Assembly: GCF_003991155.1 (NCBI RefSeq)
Contig: NZ_CP031293.1
Length of the DNA stretch: 64,000 nt
Strand: one strand, 5' to 3'
Source of the DNA: Escherichia coli
Lineage (GTDB): Bacteria; Pseudomonadota; Gammaproteobacteria; Enterobacterales; Enterobacteriaceae
Part shown: positions 3,230-62,982 of the stretch, piece after piece
How the letters are laid out: every line of letters begins with the position of its first letter
Numbering within the stretch: the stretch's first letter is position 1
Notes under the pieces: generated by a model
What the model was told of the DNA's origin: nothing
Seen by the model: the letters and a program-made list of their open reading frames with translations, nothing else
Database searches by the model: none
Made by a program: the position numbers and the translations under genes

Positions 3230-4099
3230 TTATTTCAGAACAGTTTTCAGTGCTTCACCGATATCCGCCAGGCTGCGAACGGTTTTCACGCCTGCGGCTT
3301 CCAGAGCAGCGAATTTCTCATCCGCAGTCCCTTTCCCACCGGCAATGATCGCACCTGCGTGACCCATACGTTTGCCTTTCGGCGCAGTCACACCAGCGAT
3401 GTAACCTACAACTGGCTTGGTAACGTGCTCTTTGATGTATGCAGCCGCTTCTTCTTCAGCGCTACCACCGATCTCACCGATCATCACGATCGCTTCGGTC
3501 TGCGGATCTTTTTCGAACATTTCGAGGATGTCGATAAAGTTAGAGCCAGGGATCGGGTCGCCGCCGATACCAACACAGGTCGACTGACCGAAACCGTAAT
3601 CCGTGGTCTGTTTAACCGCTTCATAGGTCAGTGTACCGGAACGGGAAACGATACCCACTTTACCCGGTTTGTGAATGTGACCAGGCTGGATACCGATTTT
3701 GCATTCACCCGGAGTGATAACGCCCGGGCAGTTCGGGCCGATCATGCGAACGCCCGCTTCATCCAGTTTCACCTTCACGGTCAGCATATCCAGCGTCGGG
3801 ATGCCTTCAGTGATGGTGATAATCAGTTTGATGCCTGCATCAATAGCTTCCAGAATGGAGTCTTTGCAGAACGGTGCTGGTACGTAGATAACAGAAGCGG
3901 TAGCGCCAGTAGCAGCAACAGCTTCACGCACGGTGTTGAACACCGGCAGGCCGAGGTGGGTGGTGCCGCCTTTACCTGGGGTTACGCCGCCAACCATTTT
4001 AGTGCCGTATGCAATAGCCTGTTCTGAGTGGAAAGTCCCCTGGCTACCGGTAAAGCCCTGGCAGATAACCTTGGTGTTTTTATCAATTAAAATGGACAT
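3230..4099 (-). CDS. sucD: Succinyl-CoA synthetase alpha subunit
   Basis: 289-aa ORF; translation [33 protein letters not shown]... Confidence 0.97.
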
Positions 4100-5265
4100 T
4101 ATTTCCCCTCCACTGCGGCAACAACCTGCTGAGCTGCATCCGTCAGACCTTTTGCTGCAATAATATTCAGGCCGCTGTCAGCCAGTTTCTTCGCGCCGAG
4201 TTCGGCGTTGTTACCTTCCAGACGTACCACGACCGGTACGTTAACACCCACTTCCGCTACCGCGCCGATGATACCGTCAGCGATCAGGTCGCAACGAACG
4301 ATACCGCCGAAGATGTTAACCAGAACGGCTTTCACTTTGTCGTCAGAGAGGATGATTTTGAACGCTTCGGTTACGCGCTCTTTGGTTGCGCCGCCGCCAA
4401 CGTCCAGGAAGTTAGCTGGTTCGCCGCCGTGCAGTTTAACGATGTCCATGGTGCCCATCGCCAGGCCTGCGCCGTTAACCATACAACCGATGTTACCGTC
4501 CAGCGCAACGTAGTTCAGTTCCCACTGTGCAGCCTGTGCTTCACGCGGATCTTCCTGCGACTGGTCACGCATTTCGCGCAGATCAGGCTGGCGGAACAGT
4601 GCGTTGCCATCAGCGCCCAGTTTGCCGTCGAGGCAAATCAGATCGCCCTGTTTGGTGATGACCAGCGGGTTGATTTCGATCAGCGCCAGGTCGCGCTCCA
4701 GGAAAATGGTCGCCAGGCCCATGAAGATTTTGGTGAACTGCTGAACCAGTTTACCTTCCAGACCCAGTTTGAACGCCAGCTCGCGTCCCTGATACGGCAT
4801 CGGGCCAGTCAGCGGATCAAGCGCAACTTTGTGGATCAGGTGCGGAGTTTCTTCCGCCACTTTTTCGATTTCCACGCCGCCTTCGGTGGAGGCCATAAAG
4901 ACCACGCGACGTGAACTACGGTCTACAACGGCACCGAGATACAGCTCTTTAGCGATATCGGTCGCTGCTTCAACCAGAATCTGGTTAACCGGTTGGCCAT
5001 TGGCATCTGTTTGATACGTTACCAGACGCTTGCCCAGCCAGTTTTCTGCAAAAGCACGGATGTCTTCTTTGCTGTTTACCACTTTCACACCGCCCGCTTT
5101 ACCGCGGCCACCAGCGTGAACCTGACATTTCACTACCCACGGACCGGCACCGATTTTTGAAGCGGCTTCTTCTGCTTCGCGCGGAGTAGTACAGGCATAA
5201 CCCACCGGTGCTGGTAAGCCATAGCGGGCAAAAAGTTGTTTTGCCTGATATTCATGTAAGTTCAT
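4099..5265 (-). CDS. sucC: Succinyl-CoA synthetase beta subunit
   Basis: 388-aa [21 protein letters not shown]...; stop overlaps the sucD start by 1 nt. Confidence 0.97.
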
Positions 5266-5305
5266 GTGTTCTGTCCATCCTTCAGTAATCGTTATCTTTT
5301 AAACC

Positions 5306-5336
5306 GTAGACCGACACCCTATCCACGTCGGTCTAC
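5306..5336 (-). other. Intercistronic hairpin between sucB and sucC (10-bp stem GTAGACCGAC/GTCGGTCTAC, 11-nt loop)
   Basis: Perfect inverted repeat read from the sequence; lies inside the operon transcript. Confidence 0.4.
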
Positions 5337-5358
5337 AGTGCAGGTGAAACTTAAACTA

Positions 5359-6576
5359 CTACACGTCCAGCAGCAGACGCGTCGGATCTTCCAGCAACTC
5401 TTTGATCGTTACCAGGAAGCCCACGGATTCGCGACCATCGATCAGACGGTGATCGTAGGACAGCGCCAGGTACATCATCGGCAGGATCTCAACCTGACCA
5501 TTCACCGCCATCGGACGATCTTTGATAGCGTGCATACCCAGAATTGCGCTCTGCGGCGGGTTGATGATCGGCGTAGACATCAGGGAACCGAACACACCAC
5601 CGTTGGTGATGGTGAAGTTACCACCGGTCAGATCTTCAACCGTCAGCTTGCCGTCACGGCCTTTAACTGCCAGCTCTTTAATTTTCTTCTCAATGTCTGC
5701 CATACCGAGGGTATCGACATCACGCAGTACCGGCGTCACCAGGCCGCGCGGCGTAGAAACCGCCATGCTGACGTCGAAATAGTTGTGGTAAACCACGTCA
5801 TCGCCGTCGATAGAAGCATTCACTTCCGGGTAACGTTTCAGGGCTTCAACCACCGCTTTCACGTAGAAGGACATAAAGCCCAGACGGATGCCGTGGCGTT
5901 TTTCAAACGCTTCACCGTACTGCTTACGCAGATCCATAATCGGCTTCATGTTGACTTCGTTGAACGTGGTCAGCATGGCGGTGGAGTTTTTCGCTTCCAG
6001 CAGACGCTCTGCCACACGCTTACGCAGGCGAGTCATCGGCACACGTTTTTCGCTACGTGCAGCCAGGGCCGGTTGCGCCGCCGGAGCAGCCGCTGCCGGA
6101 GCAGACTCTTTCGCCGGGGCTTTCGCCAGATGTTTTTCCACATCTTCACGGGTCAGACGACCACCTACACCGGTGCCTTTAATGGCGCTGGCATCAAGAT
6201 TGTGTTCAGCCAGCAGGCGACGGATCGCCGGGCTTAAAGCATCGTTGTTTTGCTCTTCCAGAGACGCCTGCTGGCGTTGCGCCGGAGTGGACGCTTTCTC
6301 TTCAGATTTGGCGCTGGTTTCTTTACCGGCGCTGTTGCCTTCACGCAGGCGACCAAGGATCTGACGAGACGTTACCGTTGTACCTTCATCTTCCAGAACC
6401 GCATCCAGAATGCCGTCTGCTGATGCCGGTACTTCCAGTACCACTTTGTCAGTTTCGATTTCTACCAGCACTTCATCACGTACGACTGCGTCGCCGGGTT
6501 TTTTATGCCAGGTTGCGACGGTGGCATCGGCTACGGATTCAGGCAGGTCAGGGACCAGAATATCTACGCTACTCAT
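5359..6576 (-). CDS. sucB: 2-oxoglutarate dehydrogenase E2 (dihydrolipoyllysine succinyltransferase)
   Basis: 405-aa ORF with lipoyl domain ([13 protein letters not shown]) and Ala/Pro-rich linker. Confidence 0.97.
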
Positions 6577-13529: not shown

Positions 13530-14813
13530 ATGGCTGATACAAAAGCAAAACTCACCCTCAACGGGGACACAGCTGTTGAACTGGATGTGCTGAAAGGCAC
13601 GCTGGGTCAAGATGTTATTGATATCCGTACTCTCGGTTCAAAAGGTGTGTTCACCTTTGACCCAGGCTTCACTTCAACCGCATCCTGCGAATCTAAAATT
13701 ACTTTTATTGATGGTGATGAAGGTATTTTGCTGCACCGCGGTTTCCCGATCGATCAGCTGGCGACCGATTCTAACTACCTGGAAGTTTGTTACATCCTGC
13801 TGAATGGTGAAAAACCAACTCAGGAACAGTATGACGAATTTAAAACTACGGTGACCCGTCATACCATGATCCACGAGCAGATTACCCGTCTGTTCCATGC
13901 TTTCCGTCGCGACTCGCATCCAATGGCAGTCATGTGTGGTATTACCGGCGCGCTGGCGGCGTTCTATCACGACTCGCTGGATGTTAACAATCCTCGTCAT
14001 CGTGAAATTGCCGCGTTCCGCCTGCTGTCGAAAATGCCGACCATGGCCGCGATGTGTTACAAGTATTCCATTGGTCAGCCATTCGTTTACCCGCGCAACG
14101 ATCTCTCCTATGCCGGTAACTTCCTGAATATGATGTTCTCCACGCCGTGCGAACCGTATGAAGTTAATCCGATTCTGGAACGTGCTATGGACCGTATTCT
14201 GATCCTGCACGCTGACCATGAACAGAACGCCTCTACCTCCACCGTGCGTACCGCTGGCTCTTCGGGGGCGAACCCGTTTGCCTGTATCGCAGCAGGTATT
14301 GCTTCACTGTGGGGACCTGCGCACGGTGGTGCTAACGAAGCGGCGCTGAAAATGCTGGAAGAAATCAGTTCCGTTAAACACATTCCGGAATTTGTTCGTC
14401 GTGCGAAAGACAAAAATGACTCTTTCCGCCTGATGGGCTTCGGCCACCGCGTGTACAAAAATTACGACCCGCGCGCCACCGTAATGCGTGAAACCTGCCA
14501 TGAAGTTCTGAAAGAGCTGGGCACCAAAGATGACCTGCTGGAAGTGGCTATGGAGCTGGAAAACATCGCGCTGAACGACCCGTACTTTATCGAGAAAAAA
14601 CTGTACCCGAACGTCGATTTCTACTCTGGTATCATCCTGAAAGCGATGGGTATTCCGTCTTCTATGTTCACCGTGATCTTCGCGATGGCGCGTACCGTTG
14701 GCTGGATCGCCCACTGGAGCGAAATGCACAGTGACGGTATGAAGATTGCCCGTCCGCGTCAGCTTTACACCGGCTACGCGCAGCGTGATTTTAAGTCGGA
14801 TATTAAGAAGTAA
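13530..14813 (+). CDS. gltA: Citrate synthase
   Basis: 427-aa [42 protein letters not shown]... Confidence 0.97.
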
Positions 14814-14826
14814 AAATGACACCGAC

Positions 14827-14856
14827 AAAACCCTGCGTGTTCACGCAGGGTTTTTA
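14827..14856 (+). terminator. gltA intrinsic terminator (stem CCCTGCGTG/CACGCAGGG followed by TTTTT); probably bidirectional
   Basis: Hairpin and T-run read from the sequence; an A-run precedes the stem; the dctM stop is 4 nt beyond. Confidence 0.7.
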
Positions 14857-14859
14857 GTT

Positions 14860-16170: not shown

Positions 16171-16631
16171 TATTCACCTTCCTTGCGTGGCGTTTTCTTG
16201 ATCAGGTGTAAGGCAGTAAAACAGGCGATACCGATTGCACCAACCGTGACCGCAATATCGATCCAAAACCAGGATATTTTTAATATTTGCGTGGTTTTAA
16301 ATGCTGTTCCGGCAGCTAATTTCCATGCTGACCAAGCCATCACACTCAGTAAAACAATAGATATCAGAGAGACAAATAACGTTAAAACACGTTGCACGCG
16401 TGGTGTCAGTGCATCAGCTAAAAATGGAATCGACAAATGGGTATTATCCCGCTCGGCAACGACCGCACCAAACATGACTACCCAAATCATTAATAAACCG
16501 GAAACCTCTTCTGTCCACTGTAATGGCATATGAAAACAGTAACGCATTATTACCGCAGCAATGGTCATGATTACCAATATAAAGAGCGTTAATACCGCAG
16601 CAACTTCAATCATTTTCCCTAAAAGACGCAT
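16170..16631 (-). CDS. TRAP transporter small permease (DctQ family)
   Basis: About 153 aa with 4 predicted TM segments; start chosen at the ATG (MRLLGKMIEV...) with AGAGG RBS rather than the upstream GTG. Confidence 0.8.
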   Translation of the reverse strand: MRLLGKMIEVAAVLTLFILVIMTIAAVIMRYCFHMPLQWTEEVSGLLMIWVVMFGAVVAERDNTHLSIPFLADALTPRVQRVLTLFVSLISIVLLSVMAWSAWKLAAGTAFKTTQILKISWFWIDIAVTVGAIGIACFTALHLIKKTPRKEGE

Positions 16632-16650
16632 AAACACCTCTGCTCTTAAC

Positions 16651-16672
16651 GGTCGGTGCCGAAACACCGACC
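16651..16672 (-). other. Intercistronic hairpin between the TRAP binding-protein and permease genes (GGTCGGTG..CACCGACC)
   Basis: 8-bp perfect inverted repeat with 6-nt loop, read from the sequence. Confidence 0.4.
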
Positions 16673-16690
16673 AGTCCTTATGCCATGAAG

Positions 16691-17659
16691 TTATTTCAGC
16701 TGTTGCTGAATAGTGTCATACAAACCAGGGGTCCATTCCGGGAATTGTTGATAGACTTTTAAGGCTTTTTCTTTGAAAGGGGCGACGTCAGGATAGATAA
16801 TTTCCACGCCCTGCTCCTGCATGGTTTTCAACATTGTCGCATCCTGCTCAGTGGTAATTTTCTGGCTATATAAACCAGCTTCATACGCTGTCTGGTGAAT
16901 AATATCTAACTGCGCAGGTGTCAGGGTACTGAAAAACGCTTCACCACCCAACCATAATGATGTATTGGTCAGATAGTTCACCATTGACAGATATTTCGCC
17001 TGCTCATGCAGTTTTTGCCCATACAGAACAGAAACCGGGTTTTCCACACCATCGATCATCCCCTGCGTCAGCGCCGGATAAACGTCTCCCAGCGGCATTG
17101 GCGTTGGGGTTGCGCCCATTGCTTCAATGGCTTTAATCTGCATAACGTTATTCGGCACGCGGATCTTCATCCCTTTCAGGTCTTCAGGTGTACGAATCGG
17201 TTTTTTAGCAATGATCTGCCTGGTACCGTACAGATAGTTGCTCATGACAATATGCACACCTTTTTCCCGTAGTTTCTGTTCTTTTTGTTTAAACCAGTCA
17301 CTGGCATAAATCGCAAACAGTTTCTGCGGATCTTCGGTTAAATAAGGCCCAAACAATATTCCCAGGTCTGCATCGTAGTCAGTTAAAAATCCCACATCAC
17401 TGATGGTGATAATATTCATCCCCATCAACGCTTGTTCAGTAATATCTTGTTTAGAACCTAACTGTGAACTTGGGTAAAGTTCGAAAACAATATCTCCATT
17501 GCTTTTTTTCTTCACAAGTTCTGCCCAGTGCTTCACTACTGTATCCGCTGGCTCGCCGGGGTTACTTTCATAGGCGATTTTGATAGTTACCGGTGCGGCA
17601 TTCAGCATCGGACTAAATAAAGCGAAAAGAAATAAAAGTGGTGTCAGTAATTTTTTCAT
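16691..17659 (-). CDS. TRAP transporter periplasmic solute-binding protein (DctP family)
   Basis: 322 aa; signal peptide MKKLLTPLLFLFALFSPMLNA; conserved KIRVP region typical of carboxylate-binding DctP proteins. Confidence 0.85.
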   Translation of the reverse strand: MKKLLTPLLFLFALFSPMLNAAPVTIKIAYESNPGEPADTVVKHWAELVKKKSNGDIVFELYPSSQLGSKQDITEQALMGMNIITISDVGFLTDYDADLGILFGPYLTEDPQKLFAIYASDWFKQKEQKLREKGVHIVMSNYLYGTRQIIAKKPIRTPEDLKGMKIRVPNNVMQIKAIEAMGATPTPMPLGDVYPALTQGMIDGVENPVSVLYGQKLHEQAKYLSMVNYLTNTSLWLGGEAFFSTLTPAQLDIIHQTAYEAGLYSQKITTEQDATMLKTMQEQGVEIIYPDVAPFKEKALKVYQQFPEWTPGLYDTIQQQLK

Positions 17660-17686
17660 TATTATTACCTGTAAGAGCTTTATCGA

Positions 17687-18883
17687 TTAACGGGGATCTG
17701 CCCGACAGACTGCACTTTTGCTGTAATCAAATGCTTTATACGTTAAAACAAACTCCTGATGTTCCAGTCGTTCTGCGGCACAATATTGACCGTTGGCGAC
17801 ATGTTCAATCACCTGCATAATATCGTCTGCAATATCGTCGAGCGTTGCGCCTTCGCTAATTACACGACCGGCATTAACGTCCATATCGTCAGATAAATGC
17901 TCCCACGTCTGCGGGTTATTACACACTTTAATAATAGGAGCGATCACTGAACCAATAACTGAACCGCGACCTGTGGTAAATAACACCATATGACAGCCAG
18001 AGGCGATAAGTTCCAGTGCTTCTGAGGAATCGTTAATATTCGGATACCCAAAACGAGGTTCACCATCAGGCACCACGTCCATCAACCAAAGCCCAGGAAA
18101 GGGCGTTTGTTGCGTCGGCAAAATAACGCCAGCAATCAGCGCATCGCCCGACTTGGTATAAGCCCCAAGGGATTTTTCTTCCTGAGTGGTTAAGCCGCCT
18201 TCAGCATTACCATTAGAAAAACTCCCCAGCCCCATCAAACTGTAATAACGTTCGGCTTTTGCCATTGCCACTTCGATGGCATCACGTGCCTGCGAACTAG
18301 CCGCGCGCGACATCATATGCTGCTCACAACCAAGCAACTCACCGCTTTCTTCAAAAATACAGGTAGCCCCTTTCTCCAGCAGTTGGTCAAAGGCACGTCC
18401 TACTGCCGGGTTACCCGTGATACCACTGGTGCCATCGGAGCCACCGCAGATAGTACCAACCACCAGGTCGCTCCAGTTCAGGATACAACGCGGTGTATCC
18501 GCAAGCTGTTCCAGCATTTCAGCGACCAACTGCTTACCCAGAGTAATGGTGTTGGTCGTGCCTTTATTTTCCTGAATGACCAGCGTATGGCACGGTCGCC
18601 CACTTTCTCGTACTTCTTGCTCCAGCCGACGGCGATCAAAATTCTCGCACCCCAGCGAAATAATCAGTACACCACCTACGTTGCTATGAATCGCCAGATT
18701 TTTTACCAGACGATAGCCATAATCGCTGGGATAACAACCTGAAAAACCAAAATACTGCACGTCGTGACAAGGAAATCCTTCGGCAATCTTTTTAGCGACA
18801 TGGCTGGCACACTCCACCATAAAGATTACCTGCACAGTATTACGAATACCCGGTCGACCATTTTGCCGTACATAACCTTCCAT
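17687..18883 (-). CDS. UxaA-family (altronate/galactarate dehydratase-like) large subunit
   Basis: 398-aa ORF MEGYVRQNGRPGIRNTVQVIFMVECASHV... resembling the C-terminal catalytic part of UxaA/GarD; start overlaps the small-subunit stop (TAATG). Confidence 0.8.
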   Translation of the reverse strand: MEGYVRQNGRPGIRNTVQVIFMVECASHVAKKIAEGFPCHDVQYFGFSGCYPSDYGYRLVKNLAIHSNVGGVLIISLGCENFDRRRLEQEVRESGRPCHTLVIQENKGTTNTITLGKQLVAEMLEQLADTPRCILNWSDLVVGTICGGSDGTSGITGNPAVGRAFDQLLEKGATCIFEESGELLGCEQHMMSRAASSQARDAIEVAMAKAERYYSLMGLGSFSNGNAEGGLTTQEEKSLGAYTKSGDALIAGVILPTQQTPFPGLWLMDVVPDGEPRFGYPNINDSSEALELIASGCHMVLFTTGRGSVIGSVIAPIIKVCNNPQTWEHLSDDMDVNAGRVISEGATLDDIADDIMQVIEHVANGQYCAAERLEHQEFVLTYKAFDYSKSAVCRADPR

Positions 18884-19194
18884 TATGCTTTTTCCTCTGG
18901 CTGATAGCCGGCATCATCATGATGAAAAATGGCGATGGCATTGCTGGCAAGATTATGGGAATGCACATGTTCACCCATGGCAATATCGCGAGTGGCGTGT
19001 CCGATAATGGCGCCGTATTTCAGAATCGAATCACCATTGTTCAGCGCTTCGCAGGCCAGTTTGTGACCCAGGGTAACGGAACTACAGGCCACCATTTCCC
19101 CCTCATCCCACCAGACAATATCGCCACTGGCGATGTCATTCAGCGCGACTACACAGTTATCTTTGGCATGTAGCTTTAACGCACGTTTGCGCAT
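18883..19194 (-). CDS. SAF-domain small subunit of the split UxaA-type dehydratase
   Basis: About 103 aa from MRKRALKLHAKDNCVVALNDIASGDIV... with GGAGG RBS; corresponds to the N-terminal domain of single-chain UxaA. Confidence 0.7.
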   Translation of the reverse strand: MRKRALKLHAKDNCVVALNDIASGDIVWWDEGEMVACSSVTLGHKLACEALNNGDSILKYGAIIGHATRDIAMGEHVHSHNLASNAIAIFHHDDAGYQPEEKA

Positions 19195-19208
19195 AATTCC
19201 TCCGTACA

Positions 19209-19964
19209 TCAGAAGCCGATCAATGCGCCGCCATCCACCACCAGCACCTGACCACTGACAAATGCCGCTGCGTCTGAAGCCAGATAAACCGCAGCCCAAC
19301 CGATATCTTCCGGCTTGCCGAATTTTTTCATCGGTGTCCGCCCCAGGATTTTGTTACGGCGTTCGTCATCACCTTCAATGGCCTTACGCAACATTGGTGT
19401 ATCGATCCAGCCTGGCGCAATACCGTTGACGCGAATCCCATGAACGGCAAGCTCCGTGGTCATACCGCGAATCATGCCGAGATAGGCTGACTTCGCTGCG
19501 CTGTAGCCAGTAACCAGAGGCTGCCCAAGAAATGAGGTCATCGATGCAGTAAAAAGCACACAGCCTTGACCGCGTTGTTTCATATGCGGCACCAGCGCTT
19601 TGGTTAACGCAAATGCGCCGACTACGTGAACGTCGAGTACTGACTCAAAATCACTGACGCTCATCTCTTCAATCGGTTTTTTGCAGTGATTGCCTGCGTT
19701 ATTGACCAGGATATCGATAGCCCCGTGTTCGCTAATAAGCGCATCAACTTTTTCCTGCGCGGCTGCGGTATCCCCGACATCCATTTGTATCCAACTGGCC
19801 TGCGACCCCAATGTTCCGGCGGTCGCTTGCGCCAGCTCGCCGTTCAGGTCAGCAATAATGACCTTCGCCCCGCTGACTATCATGCATTTCGCCATTGCCA
19901 GCCCCAGCCCACTGGCTGCACCGGTGATCAACGCGGTTTTGTTATGTAAAGAAAAAGCATTCAT
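19209..19964 (-). CDS. Short-chain dehydrogenase/reductase (KduD/IdnO-like)
   Basis: 251 aa; TGAASGLG nucleotide-binding motif, IDILVNNAG, YSAAK catalytic motif; AAGGAG RBS. Confidence 0.85.
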   Translation of the reverse strand: MNAFSLHNKTALITGAASGLGLAMAKCMIVSGAKVIIADLNGELAQATAGTLGSQASWIQMDVGDTAAAQEKVDALISEHGAIDILVNNAGNHCKKPIEEMSVSDFESVLDVHVVGAFALTKALVPHMKQRGQGCVLFTASMTSFLGQPLVTGYSAAKSAYLGMIRGMTTELAVHGIRVNGIAPGWIDTPMLRKAIEGDDERRNKILGRTPMKKFGKPEDIGWAAVYLASDAAAFVSGQVLVVDGGALIGF

Positions 19965-19975
19965 GGTGTCGCTCC

Positions 19976-20989
19976 TTAAAGGTCAATGAGGATTTTGGTA
20001 TACGCGCCGGGATCACTTGCCCAGTCGCTAAAAGCATGATCAGCCTGTTCCAGCGGGTAGTGAGCACTCACCAGATTGCTGACCGGATAACGCCCGGACT
20101 CCATCAATGCCAGCACGGCACGAAAATCCGCCACGGTGGCATTGCGCGAACCACGGATATCCAGTTCTTTCATCAGGAACTGCGCACTCTGATAACTCAC
20201 TGGCTGTTTGGCGTAACCGACATAAACCACACGACCGCTAAACGCCACCAACCCTGTAGCCTGTTCAATGGTTTGTTGATTACCCACCGCTTCAATCACC
20301 ACTTCCGGGCCGCGACCGTCATTTAACAGCACCAGTTCTGCCGCCACGTCACATTGCTGCGAATTAAGAAAACGTTGCGCACCGCATTCCAGGGCAATGT
20401 TCTGCTTGCGATCATCAATATCGATAGCAATTACGCGCGCCCCCATGGCGGATGCCGCGGCGATAGCGCCAAGGCCAATTACCCCACAACCGATAACTGC
20501 GACCCATTCACCCACATTAATTTGCGCACGTCTGGCCGCATGTAGTCCCACGGCCAGCGGTTCTACCAGCGCTAACTCATCAACACTTAAGGCATTACAG
20601 ACAATGACTTTATGTGCAGGCATCGTCAGTTGTTGCGCCATCCCCCCCTGACGTTGCACACCAAGAGTTTGGTTGTTTTTACAGGCGTTAGGACGACCGC
20701 TCAGACAGGAGCTGCACACGCCACACTCAGTGCAAGGCAGAACGACCACCCGGTCACCTGGCTTGATCGCCCCTGCCATATCGCCAGTTGCCAGCACCGT
20801 GCCGCCAATTTCATGCCCCGGAATACAGGGATAATTAACCAGCGGATTCAGTCCCCGCCATGTATTGAGGTCAGAACCACACAGTCCGACACGCTCAACA
20901 TTGATTAGCACTTCTCCTTTACCGCAGACAGGTTCGGGGATATCAACAAATCGCGCCTGACTTCCCTGCTCAATGGTTAATGCCTTCAT
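19976..20989 (-). CDS. Zinc-dependent medium-chain dehydrogenase (IdnD / sorbitol dehydrogenase-like)
   Basis: 337 aa; GLCGSDL, GHEIGG, structural-zinc Cys cluster CTECGVCSSC, GCGVIGLG NAD fold; AAGGAGA RBS. Confidence 0.85.
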   Translation of the reverse strand: MKALTIEQGSQARFVDIPEPVCGKGEVLINVERVGLCGSDLNTWRGLNPLVNYPCIPGHEIGGTVLATGDMAGAIKPGDRVVVLPCTECGVCSSCLSGRPNACKNNQTLGVQRQGGMAQQLTMPAHKVIVCNALSVDELALVEPLAVGLHAARRAQINVGEWVAVIGCGVIGLGAIAAASAMGARVIAIDIDDRKQNIALECGAQRFLNSQQCDVAAELVLLNDGRGPEVVIEAVGNQQTIEQATGLVAFSGRVVYVGYAKQPVSYQSAQFLMKELDIRGSRNATVADFRAVLALMESGRYPVSNLVSAHYPLEQADHAFSDWASDPGAYTKILIDL

Positions 20990-21001
20990 TCATTGCTCTC
21001 C

Positions 21002-21688
21002 TTACATTACGCCGAAGGTTTCAAAGGCCTGTACCGTGCTCATGCCATCACTGATGGCTTTGCGCACTTCACTTTCAGTTGCCACTTTTTCCAGGGCCTG
21101 GGTAATAACTTCTTTCTCAACAACCTGGGGAATAATCAGTAATCCATCACGATCACCAAACACGATATCGCCCGGATTCACCCGCACGCCGTGAAATTCA
21201 ATAGGTACGCCGAAGTCGATGACCTTGCCGCGCGGACCTTGATCTTGTGCGTAAGTGCCATGACAAAAGGTGGGAAATTTCAATTCAAGAATTTCAGCAG
21301 AGTCACGGGCGTAACCATCGAGTACCGCACCTGCTGCTTTCAGATGCATGGCACGGGTAGACATCAACCCGCCCCACAAGGCATAGCGCAGAGAGCTGCC
21401 CGTAGTGATGTAAACATCGTTCTCTTTGAGGGCATCCAGCGCTTCAAACATGATGCCAAACGGTTTTTCGCCAATCGCCGTCTTACCCGACGTCGATTTG
21501 GTTTCGTAAACGTCCGACTCCAGCACCGGCATTGCCCGGCCTGCCACCACCGTATTCACATCCAGCGGCTTGATTGCCGGAGAAACAAACTGGTGCATAT
21601 AGCCCAGCGTGTCGAGAATATCGCCAACCACGGCGGTAAATAGCCGGGTTTTCATCAAAGCAAAAAGTTCGTTATCACTCTTCCACAT
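21002..21688 (-). CDS. RraA-like protein, putative class II 4-hydroxy-2-oxoacid aldolase
   Basis: About 228 aa from MWKSDNELFALMKTRLFTAVVGDILD... (RraA/MenG-like fold family); first gene of the operon. Confidence 0.75.
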   Translation of the reverse strand: MWKSDNELFALMKTRLFTAVVGDILDTLGYMHQFVSPAIKPLDVNTVVAGRAMPVLESDVYETKSTSGKTAIGEKPFGIMFEALDALKENDVYITTGSSLRYALWGGLMSTRAMHLKAAGAVLDGYARDSAEILELKFPTFCHGTYAQDQGPRGKVIDFGVPIEFHGVRVNPGDIVFGDRDGLLIIPQVVEKEVITQALEKVATESEVRKAISDGMSTVQAFETFGVM

Positions 21689-21694
21689 TATTTT

Positions 21695-21728
21695 CACCCT
21701 GTAAGCCTGTTTAACAGGTTTACAGGGT
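21695..21728. promoter_or_regulatory. Nested perfect palindrome (ACCCTGTAA-G-CCTGTT-T-AACAGG-T-TTACAGGGT) at the 5' end of the operon; candidate operator or RBS-occluding RNA hairpin
   Basis: Read from the sequence; lies 7 nt upstream of the RraA-like start codon and overlaps its Shine-Dalgarno region. Confidence 0.35.
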
Positions 21729-21951
21729 AAGGAGAAAAAGCGCACAATACTGCGAAGGGCGTCACGAAAAAGTTGTGTATTTACTATTTCTTCGCCACTC
21801 TTTCACACAATATGTCTTTGATTCGCACTGCATGGCGGGCGCACAGGCGCAGTAGTCTATTGATAATCAAGGGTTCTGGAGGAAAATATGAAGGATACAG
21901 TCCCGGTATTCTGGATTTTACCGACCAGGAAAAAGTACAACAGGAGTAAAA

Positions 21952-22665
21952 ATGAGTGAGAGTGCGTTATTGACCAGCGTAACGTTATCGTCACAGGTCA
22001 AAAATCATATTCTTAATCTGATCGCCGAACAAAAATTGACACCGGGGATGCCAGTTCCCAGTGAAATTCAGTTGATTCAGAAATTGGGCGTCAGTCGGGG
22101 TATTGTGCGTGAGGCCTATCGTTCACTTGCCGCCCTGGGGATTCTGGAAACGCACAGCGGTAAAGTGCCACGGATCAAAAAATTTGATGATGAAGTGCTG
22201 CGCGTGGTGTTTGGATTTGCCCTGGCGACCGAACAAGTAACAACAGAGCAAATTCTTCAAGTACGTCGCTGGCTAGAGTTGGGCGTTGTGGAAGCTGCTG
22301 CCCGTAATGGCGGAGAAGAAGATTTTGCTAACCTACGGGCTGAAATGGCAAAAATCCGCGAACAGTTCGATGATGTCGAAAGCTTTATCACCCATGACAT
22401 CCGCTTCCATCAGTTACTCGCCGTTGCCTCAAAAAATCCGCTTTTTATGATGTTATTGCAGGCATTACATCAGCAATTGCGGCAATCCATCCAGGAGGGA
22501 TTAAACGCCCAAAGCGATCAGAAAGAGTATGGCAATCACATCATCACACTACACCAGAAAATCTGCGACGCTGTGTGTGCCAGAGATGTCGAAACGGCGA
22601 CTCAAGCCATGAAATCACACTTCGACAGCCCGGTCAGTGCACTGATCAATAATTCCTCGCCATAA
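21952..22665 (+). CDS. GntR-family transcriptional regulator (FadR-type C-terminal domain)
   Basis: 237 aa; N-terminal winged HTH (EIQLIQKLGVSRGIVREAYRSL) followed by an all-helical domain; divergent from the catabolic operon. Confidence 0.85.
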   Translation: MSESALLTSVTLSSQVKNHILNLIAEQKLTPGMPVPSEIQLIQKLGVSRGIVREAYRSLAALGILETHSGKVPRIKKFDDEVLRVVFGFALATEQVTTEQILQVRRWLELGVVEAAARNGGEEDFANLRAEMAKIREQFDDVESFITHDIRFHQLLAVASKNPLFMMLLQALHQQLRQSIQEGLNAQSDQKEYGNHIITLHQKICDAVCARDVETATQAMKSHFDSPVSALINNSSP

Positions 22666-22844
22666 GACTTATTTCAGTTCAATCGTTTACTCTTCCCTCT
22701 TTTACAAATGAGAGGGAGACAACGGTACTTAATACGCCCTTTAGCCAAAATCTGTCTTTTTCTTGATTACCGCTATTTTTTCGTTGAGGCGCATTCTTTA
22801 TGCTGTATCGATACACCAAAGGTAAGTTAAACAGGGAGTGACGG

Positions 22845-31544: not shown

Positions 31545-31584
31545 CCGAAAAAAGAAAACCGCCAGCGTTTCCACCGGCGGTTTT
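31545..31584 (-). terminator. Intrinsic terminator downstream of ybfA
   Basis: Stem AAAACCGCC/GGCGGTTTT followed by a U-run on the minus strand. Confidence 0.55.
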
Positions 31585-39217: not shown

Positions 39218-39891
39218 CAAACGTTCTGATTGTTGAAGATGAACAGGCTATTCGTCGCTTTCTGCGCACGGCGCTGGAGGGCGACGGGATGCGCGTCTTT
39301 GAGGCCGAAACGCTGCAACGCGGCTTGCTGGAAGCGGCAACCCGTAAGCCAGATTTGATTATTCTCGATCTCGGCCTGCCCGATGGTGATGGGATTGAGT
39401 TTATCCGCGACCTGCGCCAGTGGAGCGCGGTGCCGGTGATTGTGCTTTCCGCACGCAGCGAAGAGAGCGACAAAATCGCCGCGCTGGATGCCGGAGCGGA
39501 TGATTACCTGAGTAAGCCGTTTGGCATTGGCGAATTGCAGGCCCGTCTGCGCGTCGCTTTACGCCGCCACTCCGCCACCACCGCGCCCGATCCGCTGGTG
39601 AAATTTTCCGATGTGACCGTCGATTTAGCCGCCCGCGTGATTCACCGGGGTGAGGAAGAGGTGCATCTCACGCCGATTGAATTCCGCCTGCTGGCCGTGC
39701 TGCTCAACAACGCCGGAAAAGTGCTCACCCAGCGCCAGTTACTCAATCAGGTGTGGGGACCAAACGCGGTCGAACACAGTCATTATTTGCGTATTTATAT
39801 GGGGCATCTGCGACAAAAACTGGAACAGGATCCCGCCCGCCCCCGCCATTTCATTACTGAAACCGGTATTGGGTATCGGTTTATGCTTTGA
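39214..39891 (+). CDS. kdpE: Response regulator KdpE
   Basis: 225 aa OmpR-family regulator; overlaps kdpD by 4 nt. Confidence 0.95.
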   Translation: MTNVLIVEDEQAIRRFLRTALEGDGMRVFEAETLQRGLLEAATRKPDLIILDLGLPDGDGIEFIRDLRQWSAVPVIVLSARSEESDKIAALDAGADDYLSKPFGIGELQARLRVALRRHSATTAPDPLVKFSDVTVDLAARVIHRGEEEVHLTPIEFRLLAVLLNNAGKVLTQRQLLNQVWGPNAVEHSHYLRIYMGHLRQKLEQDPARPRHFITETGIGYRFML

Positions 39892-40486: not shown

Positions 40487-42685
40487 ATGTCAAAATTAAA
40501 AATTGCGGTTAGTGATTCTTGCCCGGACTGTTTTACCACGCAGCGAGAATGTATCTATATTAATGAAAACAGTAATATCGATGTGGCGGCAATAGTTTTA
40601 TCGCTCAACGATGTTACACGCGGAAAACTCGATGAAATCGATGCCACGGGTTATGGCATCCCGGTATTTATTGCTACTGAAAATCAAGAACGTGTACCCG
40701 CAGAGTATTTGCCCCGTATTTCGGGTGTCTTTGAGAATTGCGAATCGCGACGAGAATTTTATGGTCGTCAGTTAGAAACCGCAGCCAGCCATTATGAAAC
40801 TCAACTGCGCCCGCCCTTCTTCCGCGCACTGGTCGATTATGTCAATCAGGGTAACAGCGCGTTTGATTGCCCCGGTCATCAGGGCGGCGAATTTTTCCGT
40901 CGCCATCCGGCGGGGAATCAGTTTGTGGAATACTTTGGTGAGGCGCTGTTCCGTGCTGACTTGTGCAACGCGGATGTGGCAATGGGCGATCTGCTGATTC
41001 ACGAAGGCGCGCCATGCATTGCACAGCAACATGCGGCAAAAGTGTTTAATGCCGATAAAACATACTTCGTTCTAAATGGCACTTCATCTTCTAACAAAGT
41101 GGTTTTAAACGCCCTGTTAACACCGGGGGATCTGGTGCTGTTTGACCGTAATAACCATAAATCTAATCACCACGGAGCGTTGCTACAGGCTGGCGCAACA
41201 CCAGTTTATCTGGAAACCGCACGCAACCCGTATGGCTTTATCGGTGGTATTGATGCCCACTGCTTCGAAGAAAATTACCTGCGCGAACTGATTACAGAAG
41301 TCGCACCGCAGCGGGCAAAAGAGGCGCGTCCTTTCCGCCTCGCCGTTATTCAGCTAGGCACTTACGACGGTACGATTTATAACGCCCGTCAGGTGGTGGA
41401 TAAAATTGGTCATCTGTGTGACTACATCCTCTTTGACTCCGCATGGGTCGGCTATGAGCAGTTTATCCCGATGATGGCGGACTGTTCACCACTGTTGCTG
41501 GATCTTAATGAGAACGATCCGGGTATTCTGGTTACGCAATCTGTGCATAAACAGCAGGCTGGTTTTTCCCAGACTTCACAAATCCATAAAAAAGACAGCC
41601 ATATCAAAGGGCAACAGCGTTATGTACCGCACAAACGCATGAACAACGCCTTTATGATGCATGCCTCCACCAGCCCGTTCTATCCGCTGTTTGCCGCACT
41701 GGATATCAACGCCAAAATGCATGAAGGTGTCAGCGGTCGTAATATGTGGATGGATTGTGTAGTAAATGGCATTAATGCCCGCAAACTGATCCTCGATAAC
41801 TGTCAGCATATTCGTCCATTCGTACCTGAACTGGTGGATGGTAAACCCTGGCAGTCGTATGAAACAGCGCAAATTGCGGTTGATCTGCGCTTCTTCCAGT
41901 TTGTACCAGGTGAGCACTGGCATTCTTTTGAAGGCTATGCAGAGAATCAATACTTTGTCGATCCGTGCAAACTGTTGCTGACAACCCCAGGTATTGATGC
42001 ACGTAACGGCGAATATGAAGCGTTCGGTGTACCCGCGACGATTCTTGCTAACTTCCTGCGCGAAAATGGCGTAGTGCCGGAAAAATGCGATCTTAACTCC
42101 ATCCTCTTTCTGCTGACTCCGGCAGAAGATATGGCCAAACTTCAGCAACTTGCTGCTCTGCTGGTACGCTTCGAAAAACTGCTTGAGTCCGACGCGCCAT
42201 TATCAGAAGTACTGCCTTCCATCTACAAACAGCATGATGAGCGCTACACCGGTTATACCCTGCGTCAGTTGTGTCAGGAAATGCATGATTTGTATGCCCG
42301 TCACAACGTGAAACAACTGCAAAAAGAGATGTTTCGTAAGGAACACTTCCCACGTGTCAGCATGAATCCACAAGAAGCCAACTACGCCTATTTACGCGGT
42401 GAAGTGGAGCTGGTTCGTCTGCCGGATGCAGAAGGCCGTATCGCTGCAGAAGGTGCGCTTCCTTATCCTCCGGGTGTGCTGTGTGTTGTTCCGGGTGAAA
42501 TCTGGGGTGGTGCTGTTCTGCGTTACTTCAGCGCTCTGGAAGAAGGGATCAACCTGCTGCCAGGTTTTGCACCGGAGCTTCAGGGTGTCTATATCGAAGA
42601 ACATGATGGTCGTAAGCAAGTTTGGTGCTATGTCATCAAGCCTCGTGATGCGCAAAGCATCCTGTTGAAAGGGGAAAAATTATGA
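40487..42685 (+). CDS. speF: Inducible ornithine decarboxylase
   Basis: 732 aa from MSKLKIAVSDSCPDCFTTQRECIYINE...; the upstream extension in the ORF track is rejected. Confidence 0.95.
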   Translation: MSKLKIAVSDSCPDCFTTQRECIYINENSNIDVAAIVLSLNDVTRGKLDEIDATGYGIPVFIATENQERVPAEYLPRISGVFENCESRREFYGRQLETAASHYETQLRPPFFRALVDYVNQGNSAFDCPGHQGGEFFRRHPAGNQFVEYFGEALFRADLCNADVAMGDLLIHEGAPCIAQQHAAKVFNADKTYFVLNGTSSSNKVVLNALLTPGDLVLFDRNNHKSNHHGALLQAGATPVYLETARNPYGFIGGIDAHCFEENYLRELITEVAPQRAKEARPFRLAVIQLGTYDGTIYNARQVVDKIGHLCDYILFDSAWVGYEQFIPMMADCSPLLLDLNENDPGILVTQSVHKQQAGFSQTSQIHKKDSHIKGQQRYVPHKRMNNAFMMHASTSPFYPLFAALDINAKMHEGVSGRNMWMDCVVNGINARKLILDNCQHIRPFVPELVDGKPWQSYETAQIAVDLRFFQFVPGEHWHSFEGYAENQYFVDPCKLLLTTPGIDARNGEYEAFGVPATILANFLRENGVVPEKCDLNSILFLLTPAEDMAKLQQLAALLVRFEKLLESDAPLSEVLPSIYKQHDERYTGYTLRQLCQEMHDLYARHNVKQLQKEMFRKEHFPRVSMNPQEANYAYLRGEVELVRLPDAEGRIAAEGALPYPPGVLCVVPGEIWGGAVLRYFSALEEGINLLPGFAPELQGVYIEEHDGRKQVWCYVIKPRDAQSILLKGEKL

Positions 42686-44001
42686 GTCAGGCTAAATCGA
42701 ACAAAATGGGCGTCGTTCAGTTAACCATACTGACGATGGTCAACATGATGGGCTCCGGTATCATCATGCTGCCGACAAAGCTTGCCGAAGTTGGGACAAT
42801 CTCAATAATCTCCTGGTTGGTGACTGCCGTAGGCTCAATGGCGCTGGCATGGGCATTCGCAAAATGCGGCATGTTCAGCCGTAAATCAGGCGGTATGGGC
42901 GGTTATGCGGAGTATGCTTTCGGTAAATCAGGGAACTTTATGGCGAACTACACCTACGGTGTCTCGCTGCTGATTGCTAACGTCGCGATTGCTATTTCGG
43001 CGGTTGGTTACGGCACCGAACTGCTCGGCGCGAGTTTGTCGCCAGTGCAGATTGGTCTTGCGACCATCGGAGTGCTGTGGATTTGTACCGTGGCTAACTT
43101 TGGTGGTGCGCGCATTACCGGGCAAATCAGTAGCATTACTGTGTGGGGGGTCATTATTCCGGTCGTCGGTCTGTGCATTATCGGCTGGTTCTGGTTTAGC
43201 CCGACGCTATACGCTAACTCATGGAACCCGCACCATGTGCCGTTCTTTAGCGCTGTAGGTTCTTCCATCGCTATGACGTTGTGGGCTTTCCTTGGTCTGG
43301 AGTCAGCCTGTGCCAACGCCGAAGTAGTGGAAAACCCGGAACGTAACGTGCCAATAGCAGTCCTTGGCGGTACGTTAGGTGCGGCGGTGATTTATATCGT
43401 CTCCACCAACGTGATTGCCGGGATTGTGCCAAATATGGAGCTGGCAAATTCAACGGCACCATTTGGCCTGGCCTTCGCACAGATGTTCACACCAGAAGTG
43501 GGTAAAGTCATTATGGCGCTGATGGTGATGTCCTGCTGCGGTTCACTGCTTGGCTGGCAGTTCACCATTGCCCAGGTGTTTAAATCTTCATCTGATGAAG
43601 GCTACTTCCCTAAAATTTTCTCCCGTGTAACCAAAGTGGATGCACCGGTTCAGGGAATGTTGACCATTGTGATTATTCAGAGTGGATTGGCACTGATGAC
43701 CATTAGCCCGTCACTGAACAGCCAGTTCAACGTGCTGGTTAACCTGGCCGTGGTGACCAATATCATCCCGTATATTCTGTCGATGGCAGCATTAGTTATT
43801 ATTCAGCAGGTCGCCAATGTGCCACCGTCAAAAGCGAAAGTAGCAAACTTTGTTGCCTTTGTTGGTGCGATGTACAGTTTCTATGCGCTGTACTCATCCG
43901 GGGAAGAAGCCATGCTGTACGGTTCCATCGTGACCTTCCTTGGTTGGACACTGTATGGTCTGGTATCTCCACGCTTTGAACTGAAAAATAAACACGGTTA
44001 A
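42682..44001 (+). CDS. potE: Putrescine-ornithine antiporter
   Basis: 439-aa APC-family transporter; 4-nt overlap with speF. Confidence 0.95.
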   Translation: MSQAKSNKMGVVQLTILTMVNMMGSGIIMLPTKLAEVGTISIISWLVTAVGSMALAWAFAKCGMFSRKSGGMGGYAEYAFGKSGNFMANYTYGVSLLIANVAIAISAVGYGTELLGASLSPVQIGLATIGVLWICTVANFGGARITGQISSITVWGVIIPVVGLCIIGWFWFSPTLYANSWNPHHVPFFSAVGSSIAMTLWAFLGLESACANAEVVENPERNVPIAVLGGTLGAAVIYIVSTNVIAGIVPNMELANSTAPFGLAFAQMFTPEVGKVIMALMVMSCCGSLLGWQFTIAQVFKSSSDEGYFPKIFSRVTKVDAPVQGMLTIVIIQSGLALMTISPSLNSQFNVLVNLAVVTNIIPYILSMAALVIIQQVANVPPSKAKVANFVAFVGAMYSFYALYSSGEEAMLYGSIVTFLGWTLYGLVSPRFELKNKHG

Positions 44002-44012
44002 TAAAGCAAAGT

Positions 44013-44046
44013 AAAAAAGGGCGATCTTCTGACCGCCCTTTTTCTT
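44013..44046. terminator. Bidirectional intrinsic terminator between convergent potE and pgm
   Basis: A-run, stem AAGGGCG/CGCCCTT, T-run. Confidence 0.65.
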
Positions 44047-44057
44047 ATTAAATGTGT

Positions 44058-45698
44058 TTACGCGTTTTTCAGAACTTCGCTAACAATCTCAACCGCTTCT
44101 TTCTCGATCTGCTTGCGATGTTCTTCACCGAGGAAGCTTTCGCAGTAGATCTTATATGCGTCTTCCGTGCCTGACGGACGCGCGGCGAACCAGCCGTTGT
44201 CAGTCATCACTTTCAGACCGCCAATAGAAGCACCGTTGCCAGGCGCAGCGGTCAGGCGCGCGGTGATCGGGTCACCTGCCAGGGTGCTGGCGCTCACCAT
44301 TTCCGGAGACAGCTTAGACAGCGCCGCTTTTTGTGCGGAAGTCGCAGCTGCCTGCAAACGGTTGTAGCTCGGCGCACCAAAGCGTTTTGCCAGTTCGTTG
44401 TAGTGTTCCTGCGGGTTCTTACCGGTGACAGCGGTGATTTCCGCCGCCAGCAGACACATAATGATGCCGTCTTTGTCGGTGGACCACGGCGTGCCGTCGA
44501 AACGCAGGAAGGAAGCCCCTGCGCTCTCTTCGCCGCCAAAGCCGAAGCTGCCGTCGAACAGGCCATCAACAAACCATTTGAAGCCTACCGGCACTTCCAC
44601 CAGCCTGCGGCCCAAATCATTGACCACACGGTCGATCATCGCAGAAGAAACCAGCGTTTTACCAACGGCAACATCTTTGCCCCACTGCGGACGATGCTGG
44701 AACAGGTAATTGATCGCCACCGCCAGGTAGTGGTTCGGATTCATCAAACCTGCCGGAGTGACGATACCGTGACGGTCATAATCCGGGTCGTTAGCAAACG
44801 CCAGATCGAACTTATCACGCAGTGCCAGCAGACCCGCCATCGCACACTCGGAGGAGCAGTCCATACGGATCGCGCCGTCTTTATCGAGGTGCATAAAGCG
44901 GAAGGTTTGATCGACCTGATCGTTAACGATGGTCAGGTTAAGGTTGTAATACTCGCCAATACGCTTCCAGTATTCGATACCGGAACCGCCCAGCGGATCA
45001 ACGCCCAGCGTCAGGCCCGCTTTCTGAATCGCCGCCATATCAACGATATCGGCCAGACCTTCCACAAACGGCTGCACCAGATCCTGCTCTTTCACATGAC
45101 CGGATGCCATCGCTTCGTCGAGGGAGATACGCTTCACGCCTTTCAGGCCATCGGCCAGCAGTGCGTTGGCACGATCTTCCACCACTTTAGTGACGTTGGT
45201 ATCAGCCGGGCCACCATTTGGCGGATTGTACTTGATACCACCATCTTCCGGCGGGTTATGGGACGGTGTAATCACGATACCGTCTGCCAGTGGGCCACCT
45301 TTTTTATTGTGAACCAGGATGGCATTGGAAACGGCAGGCGTCGGAGTGAAGCCATTGTTTTCCTGCACAATAACATCAACGCCGTTCGCTGCCAGCACTT
45401 CCAGAACGGAAATGAACGCAGGTTCGGACAGGGCGTGAGTATCTTTACCCACATAGCAAGGGCCAGTGATGCCGTTTTTCGCACGTTCTTCAGCAATTGC
45501 CTGAGCGATCGCCAGAATATGCGGCTCGTTAAAGCTGTGGCGCGCTGCACTGCCACGGTGACCGGAAGTACCGAATTTCACCGCGTGCTCCGCATTCCCT
45601 GCTTCTGGTTTCAGTACATAATATTGCGCCGTCAGTTGGGCGACGTTAATCAAATCACTCTGTTGTGCAGGTTGGCCTGCACGGTTGTGGATAGCCAT
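44058..45698 (-). CDS. pgm: Phosphoglucomutase
   Basis: 546 aa from [22 protein letters not shown]...; active-site TSGHRGS motif. Confidence 0.93.
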
Positions 45699-61508: not shown

Positions 61509-61946
61509 TTATTGAGGTGCTTGTTGATTCTGATATGCAGTAAGGAAATGTTCCGGGTTTGCCACATCACTGTTTGACAACTCATTACTGTAGGCCACCG
61601 ACCAGGTCGCCTGCTCATCCGGAATATGCAGGCTGCCATTCCCCTCTTTCAGGCGTAATAACTCAAAAGATTTGCCCTTAATTACGGCGGTATAGGATTT
61701 TTCACCTTCCTGTAATGCTTTCACTTTACAGCGAAAAATCTGGCCATCGATGTCATTATCAACATGCGATACCTGAATGAGGGCTTCATTAGAGGCTTTC
61801 GGCCCTATCCGCATCATCCACACCACAGCGCCTTCCTGCCCACGATAGCCAAAAACATATTTACCGATTTCCGGTTTGACCGTATCGGCAAACGCAGATT
61901 GCATAAGTAATAACGCACCCATCAGCGCCGTCATAAAACGCAGCAT
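61509..61946 (-). CDS. Hypothetical secreted protein (145 aa, cleavable signal peptide)
   Basis: ATG with GAGGGAA RBS; N-terminus MLRFMTALMGALLLMQSAFA-DTVKPE...; no family recognised. Confidence 0.65.
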   Translation of the reverse strand: MLRFMTALMGALLLMQSAFADTVKPEIGKYVFGYRGQEGAVVWMMRIGPKASNEALIQVSHVDNDIDGQIFRCKVKALQEGEKSYTAVIKGKSFELLRLKEGNGSLHIPDEQATWSVAYSNELSNSDVANPEHFLTAYQNQQAPQ

Positions 61947-62209
61947 AGTATTCCCTCAATAAATCGCCTGAAGTGGTAGCAGAGATGCAGGCGTAGCGAT
62001 CCCTGCCCTGTCCTGTTGCAACGGGCCAGTATTTCATAGATTAATTTCCCACCACTATTGTTGAATTCCGAATTTCATCCTGTATGACAAAAGAATGGCT
62101 GTAGGGTGGGGAAAAAACACAAAGTAAACAATAATTGACGAATATAGCGCCACGCTGTTCGCAACCTAACCAAACAGTCACTTTCGAGCAATTTTCCTTG
62201 AAAAAGAGG

Positions 62210-62278: not shown

Positions 62279-62355
62279 GGCTACGTAGCTCAGTTGGTTA
62301 GAGCACATCACTCATAATGATGGGGTCACAGGTTCGAATCCCGTCGTAGCCACCA
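62279..62355 (+). tRNA. metT: tRNA-Met (elongator, CAU)
   Basis: GGCTACGTAGCTCAGTTGGTTAGAGC...CTCATAA...GGTTCGAATCC...CCA cloverleaf. Confidence 0.93.
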
Positions 62356-62363
62356 TCTTTTTT

Positions 62364-62448
62364 GCGGGAGTGGCGAAATTGGTAGACGCACCAGATTTAG
62401 GTTCTGGCGCCGCAAGGTGTGCGAGTTCAAGTCTCGCCTCCCGCACCA
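62364..62448 (+). tRNA. leuW: tRNA-Leu (UAG), long variable arm
   Basis: GCGGGAGTGGCGAAATTGGTAGACGC...TTTAGGT...GAGTTCAAGTCTCGCCTCCCGCACCA. Confidence 0.9.
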
Positions 62449-62471
62449 TTCACCAGAAAGCGTTGTACGGA

Positions 62472-62546
62472 TGGGGTATCGCCAAGCGGTAAGGCACCGG
62501 TTTTTGATACCGGCATTCCCTGGTTCGAATCCAGGTACCCCAGCCA
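62472..62546 (+). tRNA. glnU: tRNA-Gln (UUG)
   Basis: TGGGGTATCGCCAAGCGGTAAGGCACCGGTTTTTGATACCGG...CCA. Confidence 0.92.
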
Positions 62547-62580
62547 TATTCTTCGAGTAAGCGGTTCACCGCCCGGTTAT

Positions 62581-62655
62581 TGGGGTATCGCCAAGCGGTA
62601 AGGCACCGGTTTTTGATACCGGCATTCCCTGGTTCGAATCCAGGTACCCCAGCCA
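62581..62655 (+). tRNA. glnW: tRNA-Gln (UUG), identical copy
   Basis: Same sequence as the 62472-62546 copy. Confidence 0.92.
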
Positions 62656-62670
62656 TCGAAGAAACAATCT

Positions 62671-62747
62671 GGCTACGTAGCTCAGTTGGTTAGAGCACAT
62701 CACTCATAATGATGGGGTCACAGGTTCGAATCCCGTCGTAGCCACCA
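62671..62747 (+). tRNA. metU: tRNA-Met (elongator, CAU), second copy
   Basis: Identical to the 62279-62355 copy. Confidence 0.93.
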
Positions 62748-62795
62748 AATTCTGAATGTGTCGAATGTGTTCGGCAAATTCACAAACCAATTTGT

Positions 62796-62870
62796 TGGGG
62801 TATCGCCAAGCGGTAAGGCACCGGATTCTGATTCCGGCATTCCGAGGTTCGAATCCTCGTACCCCAGCCA
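62796..62870 (+). tRNA. glnV: tRNA-Gln (CUG)
   Basis: TGGGGTATCGCCAAGCGGTAAGGCACCGGATTCTGATTCCGG...CCA. Confidence 0.92.
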
Positions 62871-62907
62871 ATTTATTCAAGACGCTTACCTTGTAAGTGC
62901 ACCCAGT

Positions 62908-62982
62908 TGGGGTATCGCCAAGCGGTAAGGCACCGGATTCTGATTCCGGCATTCCGAGGTTCGAATCCTCGTACCCCAGCCA
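62908..62982 (+). tRNA. glnX: tRNA-Gln (CUG), second copy
   Basis: Identical to the 62796-62870 copy. Confidence 0.92.

Follow-up and report, generated by a model that had tools for sequence, protein, structure and literature searches.

The Escherichia coli DNA analyzed here carries, at both the potE-pgm and the sucB-sucC junction, the short allele that is the majority form in E. coli, and K-12 carries the unusual one. The sequence, referred to here as the window, is a 64,000-nucleotide stretch of contig NZ_CP031293.1 (NCBI RefSeq assembly GCF_003991155.1), and its relevant features are collected in the table below. Across 5,426 complete E. coli genomes, potE and pgm were contiguous within one match in 3,196 (a few of these include IS200C or a BIME in the spacer), the K-12 insert was present at a coverage of at least 80% in 1,850, and 354 lacked speFL-speF-potE and had kdpE opposed to pgm, a BIME and the pgm terminator that we designate T1 lying between the two. 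At sucB-sucC, the short hairpin form (scored as the presence of 51 bp centred on the hairpin) was found in 3,331 of the same genomes and a K-12-like spacer of 274 bp in 959; the remaining genomes appear to be mostly of a 365-bp form. An earlier reading made from the letters alone (the sequence-only reading) had treated both differences as minor indels relative to the reference. The indels are real, but the short forms are the E. coli majority and not strain-specific deletions. Taken as a whole, our explanation, in which both junctions hold common short alleles, the potE-pgm short form is ancestral, and the sucB-sucC allele is one without a REP array, is very probably correct.

Features of the window at and around the two junctions
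Feature	Position	Strand	Basis
sucC, succinyl-CoA synthetase beta subunit	4099..5265	-	Direct reading and 2016C-3878 annotation
sucB-sucC spacer, 93 bp, form without BIME array	5266..5358		Reading; comparison with 274-bp and 365-bp forms
Hairpin, core GTAGACCGAC / GTCGGTCTAC, no U-tract	~5303..5339	-	Fold and sequence comparison
sucB (odhB), E2 of 2-oxoglutarate dehydrogenase	5359..6576	-	2016C-3878 annotation mapped on the window; stop codon read
kdpE 3' end, ~91% identical copy is K-12 pseudogene ybfI	39748..39891	+	BLAST of K-12 locus; ybfI compared with kdpE alleles
potE, putrescine-ornithine antiporter, 439 aa	42682..44001	+	ORF list and RefSeq annotation of near-identical 2016C-3878
potE-pgm spacer, 56 bp	44002..44057		Direct reading
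Shared hairpin A6-GGGCGATC-TTCT-GACCGCCC-T5	44013..44044		Pattern scan, folding, shuffles
pgm, phosphoglucomutase, 546 aa	44058..45698	-	ORF list and 2016C-3878 annotation

Strain background and divergence of the speF-potE locus

By its sequence, the window is non-K-12 E. coli and essentially strain 2016C-3878 (NZ_CP029747.1), from which it differs by 1 mismatch in 49,967 bp. The sequence-only reading had suspected a non-K-12 background, and the comparison agrees: identity to K-12 is 94 to 98.8% block by block, the rhsC element is missing, and two further sites hold different islands. This block-by-block comparison excludes descent of the strain from K-12. The K-12 rhsC element (9.6 kb, 729392 to 738963, with rhsC, ybfB, ybfO, ybfC, ybfQ, ybfL, and ybfD) is absent at window positions ~31545 to 31555, where ybfA is directly followed by ybgA. 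Between abrB and gltA (14777 to 22755), the ybgOPQD fimbrial operon of K-12 is replaced by genes for a GntR-family regulator, an RraA-family protein, two dehydrogenases, UxaA-family hydrolases, and a TRAP transporter. Downstream of sucD (1 to 3130), an RtcB-family gene and hutU take the place of the mngR-mngAB genes of K-12. A further ~430 bp (61597 to 62024) without K-12 counterpart lie between asnB and the metT-leuW-glnUW-metU-glnVX tRNA cluster, all seven tRNAs of which are present at 62279 to 62979.

The speF and potE alleles of the window (40487 to 44001) are unusually divergent within E. coli. The potE gene is 93.6 to 95.0% identical to seven other E. coli alleles, which are 97 to 99.7% identical among themselves, and speF identity ranges from 91.3% to 96.4%. 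Over window positions 43400 to 44700, an identity of at least 99% was reached in only 58 of 5,434 records. This divergence suggests old allelic lineages or recombinational imports at the locus. The exact allele of the potE-pgm spacer is likewise rare, being found in 68 genomes at a coverage of at least 80% with an 81-bp megablast query; such a query is unsuited to counting the arrangement itself because spacer alleles are too different for 28-bp words.

The hairpin between potE and pgm

potE, the last gene of speFL-speF-potE, ends with the TAA stop codon at 44001, and pgm ends on the opposite strand at 44058, so that the two genes converge across 56 bp, as the sequence-only reading had described. 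(The orientation of the window is opposite to that of the K-12 coordinates.) The spacer consists of a single hairpin with approximately 10 nt on either side. Within it, an A-run (44013 to 44018) is followed by one half of the stem (44019 to 44026), the 4-nt loop, the other half (44031 to 44038), and a T-run (44039 to 44043). The 8-bp GC-rich core extends to 14 pairs with the flanking A and T runs, and the stem begins 17 nt past the potE stop and 19 nt past the pgm stop.

Several features give this element the character of an intrinsic terminator. In a pattern scan, it scored as a terminator-like site of 14 pairs, and only for the pgm strand. Folded as RNA, the hairpin reaches −21.1 kcal/mol (z = −5.8) on the pgm strand and −16.2 kcal/mol (z = −3.9) on the potE strand, and on neither strand did any of 200 shuffles fold as well. 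The gap between the strands traces to a single position of the stem, where the pgm RNA forms a G-U wobble and the potE RNA has an A-C mismatch. A U-tract is present on each strand: TTTTTT for pgm and TTTTT followed by CTTATT for potE. Furthermore, the structure is kept at the orthologous site despite sequence change, since approximately 40 Enterobacteriaceae loci have single elements composed of an A-run, a GC hairpin, and a T-run, with unrelated stems, between pgm and potE or between pgm and kdpE. We thus predict an intrinsic terminator that would end both transcripts, more strongly that of pgm than that of potE. The label of bidirectional terminator given by the sequence-only reading is plausible, with a weaker prediction in the potE direction; the A-C mismatch in the potE-strand stem and a T-run of only five T's argue against a two-way role.

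Terminators that act in both directions between convergent genes have been described as a class in E. coli (Ju et al. 2019, as summarized in bioRxiv 10.1101/2022.10.23.513370). As the class is outlined in that summary, the window resembles it in having, between two convergent stops, one hairpin that either transcript can form, bordered by an A-run at one end and a T-run at the opposite end. It differs in that those terminators are said there not to resemble classical intrinsic ones, whereas the hairpin of the window does so, at least in the pgm direction, where a U-tract follows the GC stem. Profiling is usually done in K-12, in which two distinct terminators occupy this position, and its transcript 3'-end data are not applicable to the 56-bp arrangement.

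Two trivial readings of the short spacers can be weighed at this point. The K-12 spacers at both junctions hold repeats (terminator copies at one, a REP array at the other) that short-read assemblers could collapse, and the short forms might be artefacts of such collapse. The same forms are, however, present in the 3,196 and 3,331 genomes counted above, all at the RefSeq "complete genome" level, and 2016C-3878, only one base apart, is an independent complete genome; an assembly origin is therefore next to inconceivable. It is also exceedingly improbable that the 56 bp encode a small RNA, a small peptide, or anything else beyond a terminator. That idea has no supporting observation and arises only from K-12 having genes at this position. 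An Rfam scan of the whole window at gathering thresholds found no family at or near either spacer and matched only the seven tRNAs, and the sole open reading frame of at least 40 aa overlapping the potE-pgm spacer (44052 to 44174, plus strand) lies almost wholly antisense within pgm. Given no Rfam family, no independent open reading frame, and 56 bp taken up by the hairpin and its short flanks, we rejected a hidden small gene in the potE-pgm spacer; the sucB-sucC spacer likewise showed no small gene.

The probable insertion in K-12 and the history of the junction

Alignment with K-12 at both junctions, the check that the sequence-only reading had itself proposed, shows indels at both and rules out that K-12 has the same spacing. 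The MG1655 spacer, between the end of pgm at 715198 and that of potE at 716946, is 1,747 bp long and contains ybfP, the pseudogenes ybfG and ybfI, REP elements, and two terminator copies; the sequence-only reading was thus right to place ybfP and ybfG between potE and pgm in K-12. In a BLAST comparison of the K-12 locus with the window, the pgm side matched up to 44011 and the potE side from 44041. The hairpin region matches K-12 twice because K-12 carries two terminator copies: T1, after pgm, is GGGCGGTC-GCAA-GATCGCCC in K-12 orientation, and T2, after potE, is GGGCGATC-ATTC-AATCGCCC. The two share an exact 15 bp, or ~33 bp imperfectly. T2-type hairpins are perfect palindromes; the wobble or mismatch position belongs to the T1 type. 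Between them, K-12 has a two-REP BIME, ybfP (a lipoprotein gene), ybfG (a DUF2625 pseudogene), ybfI (a 150-bp fragment of the kdpE 3' end), and a partial REP.

The ybfP-ybfG-ybfI segment is absent from the window, where positions 4746 to 6406 of the K-12 locus have no counterpart except through the paralogy of kdpE. Compared with kdpE of eight Escherichia genomes, ybfI is 85 to 91% identical, and none stands out as its source. Since the K-12 ybfI is only 88 to 91% identical to every E. coli kdpE tested, it is an old or foreign copy. K-12 segments that are absent from other E. coli, as in the comparison of K-12 with O157:H7, are known as K-islands. The ybfP-ybfG-ybfI segment is like them in that K-12 has it and O157:H7 and this strain do not. 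It differs in that neither an integrase nor an IS borders it in K-12; a duplicated terminator and REPs take their place, with the kdpE fragment inside. In pan-genome papers, ybfP appears among the accessory genes, with enrichment in phylogroup A. Such lists were all the literature on ybfP and ybfG that we found, and we found no study of this junction.

Outgroup loci bear on the direction of change. We collected 80 loci around pgm across Enterobacteriaceae, with one genome per species, and none of the 80 encodes YbfP or YbfG. E. albertii has pgm and potE converging on one hairpin in a 57-bp spacer. Convergent pgm and potE also occur in Citrobacter, Enterobacter, Leclercia, Atlantibacter, Cedecea, and others, with spacers of 35 to 130 bp that contain one A-run/GC-stem/T-run element apiece, the stems being unrelated in sequence. 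In many other Enterobacteriaceae species, kdpE directly faces pgm in the same manner. Because E. albertii and many Enterobacteriaceae have the same layout and the YbfP/YbfG genes are missing from all outgroup loci, the single-hairpin potE-pgm arrangement is most likely ancestral and the insertion state of K-12 derived. As we reconstruct it, potE and pgm would originally converge on one GC-rich hairpin that ends both transcripts. In K-12 and approximately one-third of E. coli, an insertion of ~1.69 kb would then have been placed beside this hairpin, comprising the two-REP BIME, ybfP, ybfG, ybfI, and a second copy of the terminator. The direct repeat that brackets the insertion (15 bp exact, ~33 bp imperfect) is the terminator itself.

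The 56-bp form could also be a secondary deletion, in which T1 and T2 (~16 bp shared) recombined in a double-terminator ancestor, with or without ybfP-ybfG; the product would be a T1-type hairpin joined to the potE-side flank, which is exactly the junction of the window. The hairpin of the window is indeed of the pgm-side, T1 type of K-12 (GGGCGGTC..GATCGCCC), yet its potE-proximal flank (TTTTTTACTTTGCTTTATTAA in K-12 orientation) matches the flank of T2. The stem and loop of the E. albertii hairpin are identical to T2 of strain E69, from which T2 of K-12 differs by one base, suggesting that T2 is the older copy beside potE, and E69 itself provides a double-terminator form without ybfP. Against this history, all six other short-form E. 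coli genomes compared (94 to 97% identity range) have spacers of 55 to 56 bp and share the T1-type hairpin, so that the deletion would have had to occur very early or several times in identical form. Single-hairpin spacers are moreover the rule in other genera, and the outgroups count against an ancestral ybfP-ybfG. The potE gene of K-12 is a normal E. coli allele, 98 to 99% identical to others and 88% to those of E. albertii and E69, so that T2 may equally have arrived with the inserted segment. Deletion is thus unlikely, and we retain the ancestral single hairpin as the preferred reading.

Other arrangements occur at this locus. Across the genera of Enterobacteriaceae, speF-potE is repeatedly either present between pgm and kdpE or missing from there. 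An example lacking speFL-speF-potE is E. coli O145 RM8843, in which kdpE and pgm are separated by a BIME and the pgm terminator (locus positions 5887 to 6048), and some genomes without speF-potE, including UCPROB-002 and S1-ESP-03-A, retain a ybfP-like gene between pgm and kdpE (pgm-ybfP-kdpE), an intermediate form. Strain E69 has another intermediate arrangement, pgm-T1-two-REP BIME-T2-potE, spanning 222 bp (locus positions 1857 to 2080) and without ybfP or ybfG. Its speF and potE are only 87 to 89% identical to those of other E. coli, and E69 therefore probably belongs to a divergent Escherichia lineage whose genome was deposited as E. coli. An IS1-mediated deletion is a further variant at the pgm junction. 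In two strains with different arrangements, IS200C lies immediately beside the T-run of the pgm terminator, on opposite sides of the hairpin (locus positions 2103 to 2869 in one and 2236 to 3150 in the other). Elements such as IS200C prefer hairpin and REP-like targets, and insertions beside the pgm terminator fit that preference.

A broader proposal, possible but in our judgment doubtful, is that the pgm terminator is a recurrent hotspot of recombination and insertion, at which modules (speFL-speF-potE, ybfP-ybfG, BIMEs, and IS200C) would be exchanged between Escherichia lineages through copies of the terminator hairpin serving as short homology. If so, the divergent speF and potE alleles (up to ~9% and 6%, respectively) would be imports from such exchanges.

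The sucB-sucC spacer and what the short alleles mean

sucB and sucC lie on the minus strand of the window, with the sucB stop codon at 5359 to 5361 and the sucC start codon at 5263 to 5265. The spacer between them is 93 bp long with a single hairpin, and in K-12 MG1655, where sucB ends at 762739 and sucC starts at 763014, it is 274 bp long; the sequence-only reading had correctly given the length and hairpin of the former and described the latter as longer. A global MAFFT alignment of the two spacers misplaced the gap, and we instead read the shared ends directly. Both spacers have the ends ...CTGTAGACCG and CGGTCTACGG..., which enclose 15 nt in the window and 196 nt in K-12; the difference is thus not a clean insertion, the 15 nt of the window being replaced by the 196 nt of K-12.

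The 196 nt consist of alternating y-type REPs (GTAGGTCGGATAAGGCGC...GCATCCGAC) and z2-type REPs (GCCTGATGCGACGC...GTCTTATCAGGCCTAC) with a period of ~90 bp. They form an array of two tandem y/z2 BIME-2 units spaced 89 to 90 bp apart, and strain 1283 has three units; the 365-bp form is the K-12 form with one extra 91-bp y/z2 unit. No y or z2 REP was found in the window at 5266 to 5358, which therefore carries the array-free allele, and in K-12 the array splits apart the outer stem halves of the hairpin seen in the window. BIME-2 elements are z2 and y REPs in tandem copies, whose number per locus varies between strains (Ton-Hoang et al. 2012, PMC3333891; Bachellier et al. cited there). Copy number varies between strains at sucB-sucC as well, with spacers of 93, 274, and 365 bp, and from these sequences, the difference is best read as variation in the number of BIME-2 units (0, 2, or 3), which is a type of polymorphism already on record. 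The BIME-2 units (two in K-12, three in other strains) lie between the halves of the hairpin found in the window.

The likeness to BIME-2 belongs to K-12, with its alternating GTAG-headed y-type and z2-type REPs at the ~90-bp period, and to other strains with one unit more. Unlike a BIME-2, the window has no canonical REP and only a 31-nt palindrome (GTAGACCGAC...GTCGGTCTAC), the outer parts of which coincide with the ends of the K-12 array. This palindrome may be a degenerate REP or the original target, and the 93-bp form may be either an empty site or an array that has collapsed. Given that sucABCD forms one operon and that no U-tract follows the hairpin, an internal mRNA structure is a likelier role for it than a terminator.

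Both junction differences are of ordinary types, known from earlier work on variation between strains, and the sequence itself is publicly available with annotation; there is nothing new in them as such. Their meaning lies in K-12 being atypical at two well-known loci. K-12 transcript maps, terminator annotations, and REP observations for pgm, potE, and sucB-sucC are not directly transferable to ~60% of E. coli. The potE-pgm junction also shows, as a clean natural case, a single hairpin shared by two convergent genes, for both of which it is the predicted terminator, alongside natural variants in which this hairpin occurs in two copies, is interrupted by insertions, or has IS200C next to it.
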